Of a DNA stretch of 45,011 nt, positions 8,231-42,737 are shown one piece after another. Made by a program: the position numbers and the translations under genes. How positions within the stretch are numbered: the first letter of the stretch is position 1; each line of letters opens with the position of its first letter. The stretch is from Escherichia phage JLBYU37: the sequence record NC_073054.1. One strand, given 5' to 3'. The notes beneath the pieces are model-generated. The model was not told the origin of the DNA and made no database searches. It worked only from the letters and a program-made list of their open reading frames with translations.

Positions 8231-8697
8231 AACTACTGATTTGCGATTTGGATGGCGTTATTAACGGTTCAAGCGATGCGCGTGCCGACCTGGTGCCGGG
8301 GATAAAAACGAAATCAACCTTTTGGGTAAAGTGGCACAAAGCGCACGTTCGCGAAGACCTGAACATGGATATGCTGCCGCTACTGCGCATGTATCAAGAG
8401 CAAGGCTTCGAGATCGCGTATCTGACAAACCGGCAGCGCGAATGCTGGGACACCACCGCCGAGCAATTGGAAGTATTCCCCGTAGGGCGGTTGTTTATGC
8501 GCCACATGCTGGACGACACCCCGCCGCCAGAGTTTAAGGCGTGCGCCGTGTTCAAAATGGTCTGCTACGCGGACGTGTCAGAACTGGTCATCATTGAAGA
8601 CTGCCCGAAGAACATTGCAGCTATCCGTCGGGCGTGTAGCGATTTGGTCCCGAATATTTACGCAATAAACGTTGCGAAATTCACTTGCAACCAATAG
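8227..8697 (+). CDS. HAD-superfamily phosphatase-like protein
   Basis: 156 aa; N-terminal LICDLDGVIN resembles HAD motif I (DxDG). Confidence 0.5.
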   Translation: MKLLICDLDGVINGSSDARADLVPGIKTKSTFWVKWHKAHVREDLNMDMLPLLRMYQEQGFEIAYLTNRQRECWDTTAEQLEVFPVGRLFMRHMLDDTPPPEFKACAVFKMVCYADVSELVIIEDCPKNIAAIRRACSDLVPNIYAINVAKFTCNQ

Positions 8698-8714
8698 GTT
8701 GGTTGCACTATAGT
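8685..8714 (+). promoter_or_regulatory. palindromic operator TGCAACCAA-tagg-TTGGTTGCA overlapping a promoter
   Basis: Perfect 9-bp inverted repeat 8686-8694 / 8699-8707; TTGCAA (8685-8690) N18 TATAGT (8709-8714); upstream of gene 8760. Confidence 0.45.
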
Positions 8715-12424: not shown

Positions 12425-12643
12425 ATGAAAACTTTAATTATGATTTGTGCGGTTCTTTTGTCCGGTTGCGCCGACATGCCCGCTAAAGTCTGCGACGCCA
12501 CATACCAGAATAGCGGCATGGATTATGTGGTCCCTGTGTATGGTGTTGCGGACTTCTCCGGGCATAAAATGCTAAGGGCGGGTTATCCGTTTAGCTTCCA
12601 GTACGTGTCGGTAGACCATTTCAAAAACACCACCTGCGAATAA
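12425..12643 (+). CDS. small lipoprotein (72 aa precursor), candidate receptor-blocking superinfection-exclusion protein
   Basis: AGGAG RBS; signal peptide MKTLIMICAVLLSGC with canonical lipobox; reverse orientation between tail genes. Confidence 0.6.
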   Translation: MKTLIMICAVLLSGCADMPAKVCDATYQNSGMDYVVPVYGVADFSGHKMLRAGYPFSFQYVSVDHFKNTTCE

Positions 12644-19863: not shown

Positions 19864-22506
19864 TCATCGTTTGTAAAGTACACCACCCGGTTTCGTCGCC
19901 TTCACGATCTCGGCCTTGACCGACTCGGTGATTTGCTTTCCGAACGCCTGCGCGGTGCGCGGGTCTGGACCGCTAACACTGGTATCCGTCTTACCGGTCC
20001 CCATGTTAACGTTGGTCGTTACAATCATTCCCCCGACACCGCCTGCCGCGGCAACGCCAAGTTTACCGTCTGGCCCGCGCTTAAGCGGCATGATGGCCTC
20101 GGGGCCAGCCTCCCCCATCAATCCTGCGCCCTTAGCGAACGCCTGGACGCCATAACTGAAAAAGGTGGGCTGGCTTACCACTTGCCCCGAATAGGCCGCG
20201 AGGTTGCCCCCTGCGTACGCTCCGCCGTCCGCATTCTTAGTGAGGCCGGAGAAAATAGCGCCGAACAATCCGTTTTTGCCGCCGTCACCGCCGAAAGCGC
20301 TAACGATGGACTTGAACGCCTGCGAGGTAGCCAGCTTTATTAATTCGCTCAGAATGGACTTAACCATATCTTTTGCGTTCAGCTTGCCAGTCTCGAAAAA
20401 CTCGTTCATCGTGTCCTGCATAGCGCCGAACGTGAATTTTGTGAGTGACGTCATCTGCGTATAGCCGTTACCCATTTCATCAACACTATCCTTAAGCCCG
20501 CGGCTGAAGCCATCCCATAGCGAGGCGTTAGCACCGGTCTGTGCTTCCTGCACTTCGCGCAGCTTAGACACCGCCAAATCAATATCGGTATCGTTAGCGC
20601 CCACCCGCTTCAGGCGATCAATTAGCTGCAATTCTTCGCGCAGGTTAGCCGCTTCGCGAGTGGAAAGCGCATATCCCGCCGCGGTGGCTTTTAGCTCGGC
20701 GTTCTGGTTCTTGATGAATGCATCGACCTGGGCGTGTGCTTTGATCTGCTTCTCTTTCGCGTCCAGCAATTTGGCTTCTTCGACGATCTGCTCGCGTACC
20801 GATTTAACCGCCTCGAACGCCGCCGTTTGCTGCTTTTCTGCTGCCGTGAGTGCGCGCTCCTTGCTCGCGGTGATTAACTGCTCATTATCGGCAATCAGCT
20901 TGTTCAGGGACGCTTGCGCGCGTTGCGTGCGGGTCTGCGTCGATGCGTTGGCTTCGATCTGCTTTCCAGACTCACGAAGCTGGGCTAATTCGCTTCGCGC
21001 GACTTCCAGCATTTTCAGCCCGGCATCGACTCGAACTGCCGCCGCTTTCTTCGGCGCGGGGTCTTTGTAACGCTCGTTGACCTGCTTCACCGCCTCGGCT
21101 AGTTCTTTCTCGTTAATAACACCGCGCTTATTCAGCAAATTTAGGCGGGCGATCTCGTCGGCTCGCCGCTTCGCGTTGGTTGCGTACTCCTTCTCAAACG
21201 CGGCGCGGTCGCGGGCGGCGCGGTTTGCCTCCTCGTTCGCCTTTGCTGCTTCATCCGCGGCGCTGGCGCTGTCTCGCTCGGCACGGTTGCGAAGGGTGAG
21301 CGACGCTACTACCTTTTCCTGGGCGACCAGTTCGCTGTAAAGCATGTTAATACGCGCTTTCTGCGCTTCGGTCATCACCCCACCGGCAGCGTTTACCGCC
21401 CTCATCTCGGCATAGTACGCCGTGGTCATGCGCTGCAAGGACTCACGCGCTTTCATCTCGGACTCATTCGAGGACTGCGCGCGGCCCACATCCAGGATGG
21501 CATCCCACATAGATTTAGCTGCCGATGTAACTACGTTCATCGACCGCTCAAGCGTACCCATGTTGGACTTTACCTCATCGGTCATGCTGGAGAACGACGC
21601 AGCGGCTGTTTTGTTAGCCAGAGCAACCGCGTCCGTTTCACGCCCCATATCTACAAGCGATTGCACCTGCTGGATCTGCGCCTCGGTAACGACATGATAC
21701 TTATCCGCCAGCGCACGCAGTCCGCCCACTGGGTCGTTCGACAATTTTGAGATGGATTCAACCACGTCAGAGATCGGCTGATTAGACGCCTTCGCGAAGT
21801 CATTCACAACCTTCGCCAGCGCGCCGAAGTCCGCCCCCGCTTTCACACCCGCCGCCGCCAGCGCCTGGATTGTGTCACGCGTCTTGCGGAATGATCCGCC
21901 CATGCGCTCGGCGTTCTCGGATAGCACCAGGATCTGGTTTGCCGTTAGGCCGGAAATGTTACCTGACAGCGCCAGCGTCTTGTTAAGCGCTGCGACCTGG
22001 TTCTCTGCGCGGGACGTAATTGCTACGCCCACGCCTAACGTTGCCGTTACCGCAGCAAGGCCGATCCCAACTGGACCGAGGAAGCCAGCAACATAACGCA
22101 GAGTGTTACCCAATCCACCGAACGCCCCAGTTAGCTGCGGTAACTGCTGAAGCATAACGCGGTGTACCGGCATCCCCATCTCAAGCGTAACTGCGATATC
22201 CTGTAACTGGAATGCGGCGTTACGCGAGGCAAAGCCCAGGTTTTTAGTCGACATGCCTAACCTGTTGGCGAGTCGCTCCTGTTTCGTCATGCCATCGGCG
22301 GCGCGCTGCGATTCGTTTGCCAGCTTTTCCATTCCGCCCGCGGCGTCACTCGTCACCTTTTTGGATTTGCCGAGGGTGTCGTTTAATTTCTTAACCTTGT
22401 TTTCTGTGTTCTCGGATTTCTGTGCGAAGGAGTCCAGCACAGTATTTGCCGTTCTGATTTGTGCAACATCAGCCTTTAGCGTGATGCCTGCTGCCTGATC
22501 TGCCAT
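19864..22506 (-). CDS. tail tape measure protein
   Basis: 880 aa, alanine-rich coiled coil, Gly-rich hydrophobic C-terminal segment; GGGGA RBS; downstream of G/GT. Confidence 0.85.
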   Translation of the reverse strand: MADQAAGITLKADVAQIRTANTVLDSFAQKSENTENKVKKLNDTLGKSKKVTSDAAGGMEKLANESQRAADGMTKQERLANRLGMSTKNLGFASRNAAFQLQDIAVTLEMGMPVHRVMLQQLPQLTGAFGGLGNTLRYVAGFLGPVGIGLAAVTATLGVGVAITSRAENQVAALNKTLALSGNISGLTANQILVLSENAERMGGSFRKTRDTIQALAAAGVKAGADFGALAKVVNDFAKASNQPISDVVESISKLSNDPVGGLRALADKYHVVTEAQIQQVQSLVDMGRETDAVALANKTAAASFSSMTDEVKSNMGTLERSMNVVTSAAKSMWDAILDVGRAQSSNESEMKARESLQRMTTAYYAEMRAVNAAGGVMTEAQKARINMLYSELVAQEKVVASLTLRNRAERDSASAADEAAKANEEANRAARDRAAFEKEYATNAKRRADEIARLNLLNKRGVINEKELAEAVKQVNERYKDPAPKKAAAVRVDAGLKMLEVARSELAQLRESGKQIEANASTQTRTQRAQASLNKLIADNEQLITASKERALTAAEKQQTAAFEAVKSVREQIVEEAKLLDAKEKQIKAHAQVDAFIKNQNAELKATAAGYALSTREAANLREELQLIDRLKRVGANDTDIDLAVSKLREVQEAQTGANASLWDGFSRGLKDSVDEMGNGYTQMTSLTKFTFGAMQDTMNEFFETGKLNAKDMVKSILSELIKLATSQAFKSIVSAFGGDGGKNGLFGAIFSGLTKNADGGAYAGGNLAAYSGQVVSQPTFFSYGVQAFAKGAGLMGEAGPEAIMPLKRGPDGKLGVAAAGGVGGMIVTTNVNMGTGKTDTSVSGPDPRTAQAFGKQITESVKAEIVKATKPGGVLYKR

Positions 22507-22569
22507 TATGCAGTCCCCTTTTTTATGCAGTTGCCGATGGATATTGTATCAGCGATTTCAAAACAAACC

Positions 22570-22890
22570 TTATTCAGTCTCAGACGAGGGGAGCCATTGA
22601 CCCCCGTCTAGTCTGAAAGACTGGGGTGCTATCCCGCTGTCCCGATCGGCTGAAAACCGCGGCAGCACTGGCGGGGATGGGGTGCTGTCCCGTTTTGTCC
22701 CGCCCCTTGTTTGTCCCGCTTTCTGTCCCGCTTACTTTATGCAATAAAACTGCATAGGTATGCACATTTACAGGGCGTGACAAAACGGGACGTCCCGCCT
22801 GTCCCGCTTTGAGTTTATGCAATGAAAGTGATTAGATATGCGGTTTTACAGAGGCGGGACAAAACGGGACGTCCCGCCTGTCCCGCTTCA
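22570..22890. repeat. non-coding iteron-rich element, copy 1 (between GT chaperone and tape measure genes)
   Basis: 22570-22756 is ~90% identical to 39025-39211. Multiple GTCCCGC/TGTCCCG half-sites; 31-bp direct repeat GACAAAACGGGACGTCCCGCCTGTCCCGCTT at 22779 and 22857; 12-bp palindrome CGGGACGTCCCG at 22786-22797 and 22865-22876. Confidence 0.75.
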
Positions 22891-23215
22891 TTATGCGGGG
22901 TTCTGCTGCGCCATCTCATCAAGCGCGATTCGTTCCATTAGCTTGATATCTTTAAACGCGCGCTGCTCGTTTTCGATACCGTGCATCTTAAATAGCCACT
23001 CCAGCACGCCGTAGTCGATGCCGTATGCGCCACCAAAACCGGTGCGCCATTGCGTGGAGCAATCTGTGAAGACTGCGACTATCTTCGCGTTGTCAGGCCA
23101 TAGCGCAACAGGCGGACAAACATCTTCAGGGGCCGCACCCCATAAACTCGCGGCTAAATCTTCGGAGGGTGGCGGCGGGCCATAAAAGCGTCGCGCCGCC
23201 TCAATTAGTTTTTTT
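22891..23215 (-). CDS. T-domain extension of the tail assembly chaperone (GT product by -1 frameshift)
   Basis: A7 slippery run at 23209-23215 ends the G ORF; the -1 frame continues for ~105 codons (LIEAARRFYGPPPP...VALWPDNAKIVAVF...MAQQNPA) with no start codon of its own. Confidence 0.6.
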
Positions 23216-38812: not shown

Positions 38813-38823
38813 CGTTCAGTCCT

Positions 38824-38880
38824 CATGTTGGTGTGCAACCAATATAGCAAGGTGCCAGGGCGAATGCAACCAATATTAAT
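38824..38880 (-). promoter_or_regulatory. sigma70-like promoter with two motif copies (minus strand)
   Basis: On minus strand TTGCAT (plus 38864-38869) N17 TATATT (plus 38841-38846) followed by GGTTGCACACCAAC, same cassette as at 28470-28489; TGCAACCAA at 38834-38842 and 38865-38873. Confidence 0.55.
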
Positions 38881-39024
38881 CACGCGCATGAAAAAGTTGA
38901 TCGCTATCTGCTGTGACTGCAAACTGCGTTTTTCACTCCGCATAATGCAACCCGCATTGGTTGCCTAGTTCATCGACGACCGCTCTTCGCATCATGCTGC
39001 CGTGTATTTTGCAATCTCCAGATT

Positions 39025-39211
39025 TTATTCAGTCTCAGACGAGGGGGGCCACTGACCCCCGTCTAGTCTGAAAGACTGGGGTGCTGTCCCGCTGTCCCGC
39101 TCCTCTGGAAGCCGCGTCATCCGGGGCGGGACGGGGGTGCTGTCCCGCTTTGTCCCGCCCCTTGTTTGTCCCGCTTTTTGTCCCGCTTACTTTATGCAAT
39201 AAAACTGCATA
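39025..39211. repeat. non-coding iteron-rich element, copy 2 (beside the primase-helicase gene)
   Basis: ~90% identical to 22570-22756; GTCCCGC half-sites at 10-16 bp spacing; inverted GCGGGAC...GTCCCGC pair; followed by A/T-rich stretch 39190-39235. Confidence 0.75.
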
Positions 39212-39271
39212 ACTATTCATTATATCTACACTACACGGCAACCAATGCGATATAGATTTAATGCTCAATCT

Positions 39272-39352
39272 GGCAACCAATACGCGCACAAATTAATCGT
39301 TTAGCGATATGGGAATTCCCATATCGGCAACCAATACGCGCAAATTTTAATC
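39272..39352 (+). repeat. two ~28 bp direct repeats GGCAACCAATACGCGCA(C)AAATT(T)TAATC
   Basis: Copies at 39272-39299 and 39326-39352, 54 bp apart; second copy overlaps the primase-helicase stop codon. Confidence 0.6.
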
Positions 39353-41611
39353 TTTTAAGTCATCATCGGTCGCCGAAAGCGTGATGGGTATATTCGTTTT
39401 TATGACAATATTCGACGACCCATAGATGGCTCCGGTGTGTGGGTCTGTATAAAAACCGAGTACGCCGCGCTCGACCATATCGTCGATTGCCTTCGTCGAT
39501 GTGCCACCTTTCGCAAGCCCAGCCTGGCGGACAATTGCCGATTTACTGAATCCGGTATGGTCCGGGTTATCTTCCATCAGTTTTTCCAGCGCTGCATAAA
39601 GCACTTTCTCTTTTTCGTTGCGCGGTCCTGCTGCGTTCTCTTCCTTAACTGCTGCCTTGCCAGCGGCCTTCGCCTGTTCGATGGCGAACGGTGCCAGGGC
39701 GACCGGTACGAGGTAAAGAGTCTCGTCGCGTGGCGTGGAGGCAATTGGCTTGACGTCCCAACCGGCAACTACATCGCCGAAGTCCGGCCCGGTGCTGGTG
39801 GACTGGTGTGCCTCGAACGCCTCGGACTTGCGGAGATCCACCTTAACCTTGCACTTGAGCAGGACGAAGCCGCGCGGCGCTTGCTTAATGCCGTTACGTG
39901 CCTTCTCATGATACAGGTTCAATTGGCCTGGCTGGTTGTCGTCTGGTTGCTCCAGGAAGAACGCGGAATCGACAGCACCATGCAGCGCGCCGGACCCACG
40001 GGGAGATCTGCTGCCGTTTGCACCCTTCGCCGGGTGGTGGATGACTCCCGCACTTCCGCCGGTCTTCTCCGCGATGGCCTTCAGCGCTTTGACCACTTCA
40101 CCCATATCGCTGGCGTTGTTCTCGTCGAACGGTTTAGCATCCGCGGACCGCAACGCAACAGTCTGGTTGAGTGAGTCGAACGCCACCAGGCCAACCGGTT
40201 CGCCGTTAGCGGTGCGGTTGATAAAGCTGATAACTTCGCGCAAGCCTGATTTGCTGGTGATATCCCAGCCGCGTGACTGCAGGTCTATAATGTGCAGCTT
40301 GTCCAGGTCGTGCTCATATTTAATCTGCAATGCTTCTTTACGCTGGTTGGAGGCTTCGCCACCTTCCGCGTCAAAATAGAAGCAATGAGACTGGACGACC
40401 TTCGCACCGCCAAACGGAATACCCGCGGCAACTGCGCCCATCTGGCCCAGCACGTAGAAAGACTTACCGATATTCGACTCACCCGCCATATACCAGGTCG
40501 ATTTAAAGTTAATCAACCCCTCGATGATCGGGTCGTGCTTGCTGAACAGCGCAACCGGCTCGTTATCCAGATCCGCATCGGTGCACACGCCGTATTCTTC
40601 GCCGTCGCCAACCGCATCAACAATATGTTCATATAAGGATTCGACTTCCTCGTCGTCCAGCCCCGGAAGGATGGCGGCGATTTGCTTACGGGACATGTTG
40701 TGCGGTTCGACGTTCAGGTGGTCCGGGATCCCGATAAGACGTAGCGCCAGGTGCTGGTGTCTGTTCAGTTCCGAGCAACACTCGTTGCCGGTGTGCATAC
40801 ACTTGAAACGGATCTCGCCATCCTTGACCATGATAGCCGTCGACCCTTCGCCGCTGTGCAGATGTTCGTTCGGGCACGGCACTTCATAACCGCGACCAGA
40901 AGATAACTCCTCGAATCCGGCCTGGAAGCACCAGTCCAGAATGCCGTCTGCCACTGCGTCGTCGCCCTGGGTAAGCTCGCGGCGTACTTCCTCTTTTTCC
41001 ATTCCCAGCTTATCAGCCAGGCGAAGCAGACGACGGACGCGGGCACGTTTGCCGTAGTGACACTTAACAACCGATTGCTGGTGAGGCAGGTACATAAGGC
41101 GGTTTGTGTCTTTCGTGCAGTCGTCGAAGTCCACATCTGACAGGCCCAGTTGGTGCAATAGCGCATACTGGACACGGCCCAGGTCTTCAGCCGGTACAGG
41201 CTTGTCGGTCAACACAAGGAAGCGAGCGCAACGCGTTCCACCTTTCAGTGGGTGACGGTCGCCGGTTGTGGTGTGGAAGACGTGCTCCAGTCCCGCGTCG
41301 ATGAACGCCTTACGGCAGCGGCGTAGGGTGCGGGTGTCAGTACGGTCAATATCGAAGAACAGGATCGAGCGGTCCACCGCACTGGTCTTGCGACGTAAGC
41401 CGTCACTGGTATAAGCCACAATACCATCGGCCTTACGCTTGCGGCGTGCATACTCCGCTTTATCTTCCGTCTTGTTGATATGCACCGAGGATATTTCTTT
41501 CGCATCATTAATAAATTCGAAAAACTCATCGGTGGTCATCTGGAAGTTTTCCGCCCTGGCTTTTTCGCCTTTTTTAGCGGGTTTTGTTACAGCGAATTTA
41601 ATCAAGCTCAT
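39347..41611 (-). CDS. primase-helicase (N-terminal primase-polymerase-like domain, zinc-binding region, C-terminal P-loop NTPase)
   Basis: 754 aa; ILFFDIDR acidic motif, Cys/His cluster CPNEHLH...CMHTGNEC, Walker A GESNIGKS, Walker B-like LVAFD. Confidence 0.8.
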   Translation of the reverse strand: MSLIKFAVTKPAKKGEKARAENFQMTTDEFFEFINDAKEISSVHINKTEDKAEYARRKRKADGIVAYTSDGLRRKTSAVDRSILFFDIDRTDTRTLRRCRKAFIDAGLEHVFHTTTGDRHPLKGGTRCARFLVLTDKPVPAEDLGRVQYALLHQLGLSDVDFDDCTKDTNRLMYLPHQQSVVKCHYGKRARVRRLLRLADKLGMEKEEVRRELTQGDDAVADGILDWCFQAGFEELSSGRGYEVPCPNEHLHSGEGSTAIMVKDGEIRFKCMHTGNECCSELNRHQHLALRLIGIPDHLNVEPHNMSRKQIAAILPGLDDEEVESLYEHIVDAVGDGEEYGVCTDADLDNEPVALFSKHDPIIEGLINFKSTWYMAGESNIGKSFYVLGQMGAVAAGIPFGGAKVVQSHCFYFDAEGGEASNQRKEALQIKYEHDLDKLHIIDLQSRGWDITSKSGLREVISFINRTANGEPVGLVAFDSLNQTVALRSADAKPFDENNASDMGEVVKALKAIAEKTGGSAGVIHHPAKGANGSRSPRGSGALHGAVDSAFFLEQPDDNQPGQLNLYHEKARNGIKQAPRGFVLLKCKVKVDLRKSEAFEAHQSTSTGPDFGDVVAGWDVKPIASTPRDETLYLVPVALAPFAIEQAKAAGKAAVKEENAAGPRNEKEKVLYAALEKLMEDNPDHTGFSKSAIVRQAGLAKGGTSTKAIDDMVERGVLGFYTDPHTGAIYGSSNIVIKTNIPITLSATDDDLKD

Positions 41612-41621
41612 TGCCGTGGCC

Positions 41622-41951
41622 TTACTTAGAAGTTTTATTATTGCGTACCCAGGAGCGCACTGTGCTCTGATTAATTCCGGTCAACTCGGCAATCATCGCC
41701 CAGGATTTGCCCTCGGCGCGCAAACGGATAACCTGTTTTTTGTATTCTTCCATTTCTTCATTGTGCTTTTGCAGCTTGCTTGCTGCCGTGCCGTTGAGCA
41801 ATTCCAGCCTGGCGCGTAATTCTTTTTCGACACTGCGCAGTCGTTCGATTTCAAATAATACAGCCCCCACGGCATCGGTATATGCCCATGACCGGCTTGT
41901 CTCACTGCTAACAGTCTTCGTTAACATTTCGATTGCGTCGTTTACATTCAT
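41622..41951 (-). CDS. small HTH DNA-binding regulator (109 aa)
   Basis: C-terminal helix-turn-helix SWAMIAELTGINQSTVRSWVRNN; N-terminal coiled coil; GGGGG RBS; divergent from the early promoter region. Confidence 0.55.
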   Translation of the reverse strand: MNVNDAIEMLTKTVSSETSRSWAYTDAVGAVLFEIERLRSVEKELRARLELLNGTAASKLQKHNEEMEEYKKQVIRLRAEGKSWAMIAELTGINQSTVRSWVRNNKTSK

Positions 41952-42218: not shown

Positions 42219-42737
42219 ATGTTTGAGCAAATCGTAAACCTGATCACTCGCGGCGTAGTAGCACTGGAAACCATTGCAAAGCATTATGAAACCGTTGGCG
42301 CTGCCGTTGGTAAGCAGGAAGACAAGAAGCCGTCTAAGGCCAAAAAAGAAGTTGTCGAAGATGGCGACGACGACGCCGAAGACGAAAAACCGGCTAAAGC
42401 TAAAAAAGCACCGGCGAAGGGTAAGGCCAAAAAAGAAGTCGTAGAAGATGACGACGACGAAGACGCCGAAGACGAAAAACCGGCTAAGGCCAAAAAAGCA
42501 CCGGCGAAAGGCAAAGGTAAGAAAGATGCCGATCCGCTGGCGGAGATGCGCGACGAAATCAAACAGTATGCCGCGATTATCGCCGGTGGTGATGACGACG
42601 ATGCGAACGACGAATTCGACGACCTGCTGGAAGCGTTCGAGATCAAATCAATCGCCAAGCTGGAAGATGACGACGTCGAAGACTTCCACAAAGATTTAAA
42701 AGAAATCGTCGAGACTTATTTCGAACTGGAAGACTAA
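42219..42737 (+). CDS. highly acidic protein with tandem charged repeats (172 aa)
   Basis: First gene after the early promoter; two ~90 bp tandem repeats encoding KKEVVEDxDDDAEDEKPAKAKKAPAKGK; acidic C-terminal helical region. Confidence 0.6.
   Translation: MFEQIVNLITRGVVALETIAKHYETVGAAVGKQEDKKPSKAKKEVVEDGDDDAEDEKPAKAKKAPAKGKAKKEVVEDDDDEDAEDEKPAKAKKAPAKGKGKKDADPLAEMRDEIKQYAAIIAGGDDDDANDEFDDLLEAFEIKSIAKLEDDDVEDFHKDLKEIVETYFELED

Follow-up and report, generated by a model that had tools for sequence, protein, structure and literature searches.

The tail chaperone genes G and T and the gene for the tape-measure protein (TMP) are otherwise universally adjacent, and the question raised by Escherichia phage JLBYU37 (NC_073054.1) is why they are separated by non-coding DNA, and what that DNA does. 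The window, i.e. the whole stretch of 45,011 nucleotides that was analysed, is a nearly complete Dhillonvirus genome (HK578/SO-1-like), that of a virulent siphovirus. The gap in question extends from the T-frame stop (22891–22893, minus strand) to the TMP ATG at 22506 and is flanked by G (Phage_TAC_4, E 1.7e-23), T (DUF1799, E 6e-21) and TMP (TMP_2 and Tape_meas_lam_C); it measures 384 bp, in line with the approximately 385 bp given in a preliminary description of this DNA that was made from the letters alone. Part of it recurs 16 kb away, in the gap behind a helicase-primase gene. The GenBank record of phage SO-1 already marks both places as mutually similar repeat regions, "A" and "B", and these names are used here; in the literature searched, no paper discusses them. 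We conclude that the repeat arrays of both regions are very probably protein-binding sites on duplex DNA. We further propose, giving the proposal an even chance, that the self-loading helicase-primase binds regions A and B as origin elements of the iteron type, B being the origin and A a second origin-like site.

The part common to the two regions, referred to below as the shared module, is 195 bp long (22570–22764 and 39025–39219) with 89% ungapped identity; distance and identity (about 90%) had been given correctly in the preliminary description. The heptamer GTCCCGC (GCGGGAC on the minus strand, the sense strand of both regions) is present 20 times in the window as against 9.3 ± 3.1 times in shuffled sequences, none of 100 shuffles reaching 20, and 15 of the 20 heptamers lie in regions A and B, so that the array seen earlier is real. 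An unbiased k-mer scan seeded from copy 2 of the module returned one other dense place in the genome, at 22500–23100. The repeats, or iterons, occur in both orientations and as perfect palindromes, with about 13 in region A, which includes two extra palindromic clusters, versus 7 in region B. Their clusters are G+C-rich (18–35% A+T, against 45.6% for the genome), and AT-rich stretches (63–67% A+T) lie between the clusters in region A and next to the array in region B.

On the sense strand, region A begins after the T stop with an iteron cluster and palindrome, followed by 46 bp of AT-rich DNA, a second iteron cluster with its palindrome, 54 bp of AT-rich DNA containing TATGCA-N7-TGCATA, four direct (G/A)CGGGAC iterons, a G+C-rich spacer, a further two iterons, hairpins B and A in that order, an invariant TGATACAAT (extended -10-like) and the TMP ATG (Table 1). 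The sequence CTGATACAAT is invariant in 16 of 16 region A orthologs. The 12-bp palindrome CGGGACGTCCCG was found at 22786–22797 and 22865–22876, as previously described, but the unit that carries it, thought to be 31 bp, is longer, about 79 bp in tandem (copies at 22736–22809 and 22814–22888, families D8 and D17). Region B begins at the helicase-primase stop codon and continues with 128 bp of AT-rich DNA, the module (its seven iterons lying 161–261 bp beyond the stop), about 160 bp, a promoter-like TTGCAT-17-TATATT and the next gene. Its AT-rich part contains TATAAT at 39219–39224 and three copies of ATTGGTTGCC (39238–39246, 39273–39281 and 39327–39335); a perfect 20-bp palindrome, GATATGGGAATTCCCATATC (39306–39325), stands between two of the ATTGGTTGCC motifs, outside the shared module. 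Short hairpins had also been mentioned before, and hairpins A and B are indeed present in both copies, hairpin A having a G·T wobble on the sense strand.

Table 1. Features of regions A and B and of the genes for candidate binding proteins in the window
Feature	Position	Strand	Remarks
Region A, non-coding gap from T (DUF1799) stop to tape-measure start	22507–22890	.	384 bp; repeat_region 'region A' of the SO-1 GenBank record
Candidate extended -10 promoter, TGATACAAT	22543–22551	-	about 35 nt upstream of the TMP ATG; consensus match only
Copy 1 of the shared 195-bp module (AT-rich inverted repeat, iterons, two hairpins)	22570–22764	-	repeat family D1; 16 orthologs aligned
Hairpin A, AGACGGGGG-loop-CCCCTCGTCT	22582–22609	-	stem invariant in 30 copies, loop variable
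Hairpin B, AGTCT-TTC-AGACT	22610–22623	-	invariant in all copies
Shared-module iterons, copy 1	22631–22731	-	two degenerate sense copies (22631–22644), G+C-rich spacer, four sense (G/A)CGGGAC (22687–22731)
Two tandem units of about 79 bp	22732–22888	-	each with an AT-rich stretch (65–67% A+T) and an iteron cluster with palindrome CGGGACGTCCCG
AT-rich inverted repeat, TATGCA-N7-TGCATA	22738–22756	.	adjoins the iteron array
Region B, non-coding gap from helicase-primase stop to next gene	38813–39346	.	repeat_region 'region B' of the SO-1 record
Copy 2 of the shared module	39025–39219	-	iterons at 39086–39100, 39126–39132 (inverted) and 39142–39186
Hairpin A, copy 2	39037–39064
Hairpin B, copy 2	39065–39078
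Inverted repeat, copy 2	39193–39211
AT-rich part (63% A+T) between helicase-primase stop and module	39219–39346	-
Helicase-primase gene, proposed initiator	39347–41611	-	754 aa; AAA_25, phrog_3228; stop codon abuts region B
Helicase-primase C-terminal ~85 aa, predicted winged helix, proposed iteron reader	39350–39619	-
109-aa HTH protein, alternative candidate binder	41622–41951	-	HTH_23, HTH_28, Sigma70_r4_2

Several simpler identities of the gap were tried and rejected. The only long open reading frame (ORF) in it (22580–22822, minus strand, 80 aa, TTG start) has no match in Pfam or PHROG and its orthologs differ by several 1-nt indels, which speaks against a hidden gene. A phage end (cos or pac site) was set aside because PhageTerm analysis of the near-identical phage Opt212 indicated headful packaging of a circularly permuted genome (PMC9022532). 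A host repeat or plasmid origin was rejected since blastn returned no match to the element in 72,556 plasmids and 5,426 complete E. coli genomes. Terminator-like calls in the element are merely iteron palindromes. On inspection by eye, a sigma-54 -24/-12 element was dropped for its missing GG, DnaA boxes because the TTATGCA-type matches are partial and inconsistent, and a CsrA-type GGA sponge and a G-quadruplex because the repeats lie in both orientations and the loops are too long. A scan with the sigma-70 consensus gave nothing convincing within the module.

There are 157 phage records that match region A, almost all from Dhillonvirus of Escherichia or Shigella, with 99% identity to Opt212, bob and mckay, and the element stands at the same two sites in all 157 Dhillonvirus records. 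Over 30 distinct copies taken from IMG/VR and GenBank, conservation of the module equals or exceeds that of the coding DNA beside it, with the hairpin stems and most iterons invariant and the loop of hairpin A varying freely. Identities are 86% among A copies, 87% among B copies and 75% between A and B, which indicates that A and B are old paralogs, each kept separately. The element is thus poorly described as "inserted", the word used previously: it is fixed in these phages, and an analogous gap exists in Eiauvirus (see below). A hairpin scan of IMG/VR gave only chance G+C-rich matches outside Dhillonvirus and Eiauvirus. Two of the matching records carry other host names, MG065648.1 (Campylobacter phage A144, which matches the full gap at 95% identity) and OQ221563.1 (Acinetobacter phage NJ01, which matches the 211-bp module at 87%); as both look like ordinary Dhillonviruses, their host labels are doubtful or the samples were contaminated.

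The minus-strand genes are ordered as 109-aa helix-turn-helix (HTH) protein, helicase-primase, region B, small genes and lysis genes, followed by a metallophosphatase-family exonuclease-like gene, the terminase, head and tail genes, G, T, region A, and the tape-measure and distal tail genes. DNA polymerase and the remaining replication genes are on the plus strand. Regions A and B therefore bracket the lysis, packaging, head and proximal-tail genes, in agreement with the preliminary description. Replication was absent from the proposals made there, and it is the reading that the genomic context favours.

Comparison of lineages provides the most informative evidence. In each relative examined whose helicase-primase is 44–69% identical to that of JLBYU37, the gap directly after the helicase-primase stop holds a short repeat array. 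The repeat is GCGGGAC in L128 (69% identity), CGCCCCG / GCCCGCCCC in Eiauvirus eiAU-183 (about 45%), GGGGGAGA in Cornellvirus VSiA (44%; five of the seven genomic copies are in the gap, with 0.7 expected), TTGCGAGT in L129 (49%; 11 copies in 22 kb, six of them in the gap) and GGGGATC with CTGCCAAC in L130 (46%). Hairpins nearly identical to those of the window accompany the array in L128, and the whole module is nearly identical in the L128 clade despite a helicase-primase identity of only 69%. The five lineages have five different repeats, which go together with a divergent C-terminal domain of the protein (see below), a correlation across few lineages. The L128 gap also contains a (CACACG)n microsatellite (12590–12615).

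A second site was found in two of these lineages. In Eiauvirus, whose TMP is 37% identical, a gap of about 1.1 kb lies at the GT–TMP junction and has a 40-nt module and repeats in common with its own region B, as well as a clear homolog of hairpin A upstream of the TMP gene in the same orientation. The search of related phages suggested in the preliminary description hence found the element at this junction in all Dhillonvirus and an analogous gap in Eiauvirus. In L129, another homologous module, about 200 bp long and carrying five TTGCGAGT iterons, follows a Mu_F-like head gene rather than interrupting GT–TMP, so the second copy is not tied to one downstream gene. The Eiauvirus gap (L005 42123–42900) further contains an intrinsic-terminator-like hairpin right after the T-domain gene and at least one reverse-orientation gene (42367–42720) with its own TATAGT promoter, by which the tape-measure block is physically separated from the upstream tail operon.

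An observation of a different kind concerns the edge of the iteron array, where most Dhillonvirus region B copies have the same 15-mer, GTGAATAGTTATGCA, as Cornellvirus VSiA, the helicase-primases being only 44% identical. The copy in this window (39205–39219, sense strand) differs by one base, ATGAATAGTTATGCA; VSiA (L004 37040–37075) has GTGAATAGTTAT twice, the second copy being followed by TCG instead of GCA, and region B of Eiauvirus has several copies of TTATGCA(C/T/G). A conserved protein or host factor may bind this site.

The preliminary description held that the arrays imply a sequence-specific DNA-binding protein, and this is supported by their occurrence in both orientations, their conservation at or above that of the neighbouring coding DNA, and a repeat sequence that switches between lineages while the architecture and the place beside the helicase-primase gene stay constant. 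It also held that no such protein could be identified in the window, where we find two candidates, the helicase-primase and the 109-aa HTH protein. The helicase-primase has an AAA_25 core (RecA/DnaB/RepA-like, E 1.8e-19), and its best sequence match in PDB, a weak one, is RSF1010 RepA. Its C-terminal ~85 aa form the most divergent block, with 18–36% identity between lineages versus 60–84% in the ATPase core, and are 50–100% identical within the clade that has GCGGGAC repeats. AlphaFold2 (AF2), run with a 44-sequence alignment, predicted a helix-helix-helix-wing fold for this block (core pLDDT 84–91); a single-sequence run was uninformative (pLDDT 43). The top Foldseek matches of the model are all winged-helix DNA binders (MarR family, histone H1 globular domain and LexA). 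The tail DDDL(K/E)D of the protein is conserved in the lineages aligned. At the other end, one Dhillonvirus helicase-primase (P0005) shows a clean N-terminal domain swap relative to the protein of the window, residues 200–754 being 92–100% identical and the first 200 aa only 30–38%.

Because the layout matches that of known origins of self-loading helicases (SaPI, P4, RSF1010 and SPP1), we infer the following sequence of events. In region B, the (G/A)CGGGAC heptamers would be bound by the winged helix at the C-terminus of the helicase-primase; self-loading of the hexameric RepA/DnaB-like ATPase would follow, then melting of the AT-rich DNA of region B and the onset of synthesis by the N-terminal primase. 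Both invariant hairpins beside the array might serve as single-strand initiation, loading or priming signals. Region A, the old paralog within the late operon, would be bound by the same protein and could act as a second origin, as an enhancer in cis comparable to P4 crr or, in the manner of SPP1 oriR, as a fork barrier formed by bound protein.

A number of results weigh against this proposal. The Foldseek matches reach E-values of 0.03 at best, which is weak, and probabilities of up to about 1.0, and P4 alpha is not among the matches listed for the winged helix. An HTH gene precedes the helicase-primase gene in every lineage examined, encoding an HTH_23/sigma-r4-like protein in the GCGGGAC clade and a Cro-like HTH_3 protein elsewhere; lineage-specific change of the repeats is equally expected of a transcription factor and its operators, and candidate promoters adjoin both modules. 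Cornellvirus VSiA has only one repeat cluster, and in Kagunavirus and Jerseyvirus, whose helicase-primases are 32–34% identical, neither array nor gap was seen downstream of the gene. GC skew over the genome tracks transcription direction only and gives no origin signal. Whereas SaPI origins have an AT-rich centre, G+C-rich DNA separates the two iteron sets of the shared module. Iteron spacing in copy 1 (10, 16 and 12 bp) is irregular and corresponds only roughly to the helical turn named in the preliminary description. The literature searched contains no mapping of origins, promoters or protein binding in Dhillonvirus.

Of the alternatives, the arrays might be transcription-control sites (operators or upstream activators) for a phage regulator such as a small HTH protein, region B switching on the block of genes after those for replication and region A driving or tuning a separate transcript of the tape-measure and distal-tail genes. 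TMP is required in far lower amounts than the upstream tail proteins, which makes a control point before its gene plausible. Region B does lie at the boundary between replication genes and lysis/structural genes on the same strand, with TTGCAT-17-TATATT downstream of its module and TATAAT just upstream, the invariant TGATACAAT stands between module and TMP ATG in region A, and the HTH gene upstream of the helicase-primase could supply the regulator. However, the array stays at the 3' end of the helicase-primase gene while the downstream genes differ by lineage, the second copy precedes TMP in two genera but follows the Mu_F head gene in L129, the HTH family varies (HTH_23 or HTH_3) and the architecture closely matches known origins. 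Moreover, the recognisable promoters of the genome carry another motif, TTGGTTGCA. We therefore regard transcriptional control as rather unlikely.

This other motif, (A)TTGGTTGCA, has 14 exact occurrences, often paired, almost always intergenic and pointing to the next gene (3838, 3850, 6774, 6791, 8687–8706, 12362, 28461 and 28474 on the plus strand; 38842, 38873 and 42150 on the minus strand). Its TTGCA(A/T) is mostly 16–18 nt upstream of TATAGT, TATATT or TATCTT, which gives it the look of a promoter signature of the phage itself, perhaps combined with an operator. Eiauvirus intergenic regions are full of the same motif, and L130 has TTGGCAGCA instead. Elsewhere in the window, two plus-strand ORFs (70–873 and 42219–42737) carry repeated blocks in which acidic runs are followed by KPAKAKK-like basic stretches (repeat families D2–D7); the latter, of 172 aa (phrog_3127, function unknown), is the first gene of the plus-strand early block.

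Region A need not fire. It could instead be a protein-bound roadblock or sink that stalls forks or transcription, triggering the switch to concatemers or lowering distal-tail expression. Its larger number of iterons and its two extra palindromic clusters would suit such a role, headful packaging (PMC9022532) makes concatemers necessary, and gp38 of SPP1 bound at oriR has been proposed to stall the fork (PMC6316719). The argument is one of analogy, and region A keeps the hairpins and AT-rich parts, which a simple roadblock does not need; we consider this role unlikely. A more elaborate version, in which region A is a conserved coupling device whose bound initiator links the state of replication to tail-gene expression or to the concatemer switch, and the hairpins are a new kind of loading or priming signal for an archaeo-eukaryotic primase (AEP)-like primase fused to a RepA-type helicase, is a little less probable still. 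If it were true, the two-copy layout seen in three lineages with different repeats and second sites would reflect a need for two cooperating sites.

Whether the module acts as RNA, in the leader or 3' untranslated region of the long minus-strand transcripts, was also considered; it might then be an antitermination element like HK022 put, a processing site or a protein sponge. Both copies are in sense orientation within the same 32-kb transcription direction, the sense fold is much more stable than that of shuffled sequences (z = -5.8), and the G·U wobble of hairpin A, which would be an A·C mismatch on the other strand, is kept in Eiauvirus. But an equally stable fold is obtained for the antisense strand (z = -6.1), repeats are found in either orientation, the invariant stems offer no support from covariation, and a search of the whole window at Rfam gathering thresholds gave no match to a curated covariance model. 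The inverted repeat TATGCA-N7-TGCATA provides a further argument. At the region B site (39193–39211), its 7-nt centre reads ATAAAAC on the sense strand in nine orthologs and the reverse complement, GTTTTAT, in five, i.e. it is flipped in 5 of 14 genomes, a pattern that we read as the flip-flop inversion typical of template switching at a hairpin or cruciform. Such a flip alters an RNA but not the symmetry of the duplex, so the occurrence of both orientations fits a palindrome in duplex DNA and not a sequence-specific RNA. A function as RNA is thus very improbable. Finally, a selfish repeat resembling a miniature inverted-repeat transposable element (MITE), duplicated into the GT–TMP junction and of no use to the phage, would explain two copies of a non-coding module with inverted repeats in one genome, but is scarcely credible given the same two sites in all 157 records, the absence from plasmids and E. 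coli genomes, the age and separate conservation of the paralogs, conservation at or above the level of coding DNA, and relatives that keep the architecture with different repeat sequences.

Dhillonviruses are common coliphages in work on defence systems and phage therapy, yet their replication and gene control are unstudied. For these phages, the analysis predicts the site of the origin or origins and the protein domain that reads them, and the element accounts for the odd break in GT–TMP adjacency. If the iteron origin proposal holds, the scheme of a helicase C-terminal winged helix with iterons behind its own gene would extend from the SaPI and P4 satellites to virulent siphoviruses with a RepA/DnaB-type helicase-primase, and the evolution of origin specificity could be studied in a ready-made natural series, the repeat–domain pairs of the different lineages.

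The proposed origin resembles four known systems. In the staphylococcal pathogenicity islands (SaPIs), the C-terminal winged helix of Rep/PriRep reads iterons of 5–6 bp, located just downstream of rep on either side of an AT-rich centre (PMC9371898). Here too, short iterons (7 bp) come directly after the helicase gene, in six to twelve copies and both orientations with AT-rich DNA nearby, a C-terminal winged helix is the predicted reader, the match between iterons and C-terminal domain is specific to the lineage, and primase and helicase are fused as in SaPI5. A short-repeat array adjoins the gene for the putative initiator helicase not only in Dhillonvirus but also in Cornellvirus, Eiauvirus, L128, L129 and L130. 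The differences are that the module has a G+C-rich spacer, two attached hairpins and a second copy 16 kb away, that the phage is virulent and encodes its own DNA polymerase, and that the helicase core is RecA/DnaB-like (AAA_25) and not the superfamily 3 (SF3)/AAA+ core of the SaPI/P4 type; the protein would therefore work like those of SaPI and P4 without being a homologous member of their family.

In P4, two iteron regions are reportedly needed in cis, of which crr is said to consist of direct repeats beside the alpha gene. Alpha combines primase, helicase and a C-terminal origin-binding winged helix in one polypeptide, and binds the origin repeats through the winged helix (PMC4234260). P4 differs in its octamer repeat TGTTCACC, its Toprim primase and SF3-type helicase, and the 4.5-kb distance between ori and crr; no sequence similarity to P4 was detected, and P4 alpha is not among the structural matches listed. 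The oriV of RSF1010 (IncQ) likewise has iterons next to ssiA and ssiB, short hairpins that are the start signals of the RepB' primase, and a RepA-family helicase, but it depends on three separate proteins, its RepC iterons are 20 bp long and its ssi sites are on opposite strands; the hairpins described here are candidate counterparts by analogy.

A parallel for the two regions is found in SPP1, a virulent siphovirus of about 44 kb with headful packaging that has two similar origins, one of which interrupts the late structural genes (PMC6316719). Both are made up of direct repeats together with an AT-rich DNA-unwinding element; one lies at the gene for the initiator, and the other breaks a conserved late gene order, with transcription signals on either side. 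A single initiator binds both SPP1 origins, as is proposed for regions A and B. JLBYU37 shows the corresponding arrangement, with two similar regions having the same repeats, one at the proposed initiator gene and one in the late genes, and this two-region pattern recurs in Eiauvirus and L129. In SPP1, however, initiator (gp38), loader (gp39) and DnaB-type helicase (gp40) are separate proteins, oriL is inside gene 38 instead of after it, and the repeats are unrelated. Overall, regions A and B fit best into a known kind, as an uncharacterised case of the iteron origin with a self-loading helicase that is present in duplicate, as in SPP1 or P4.

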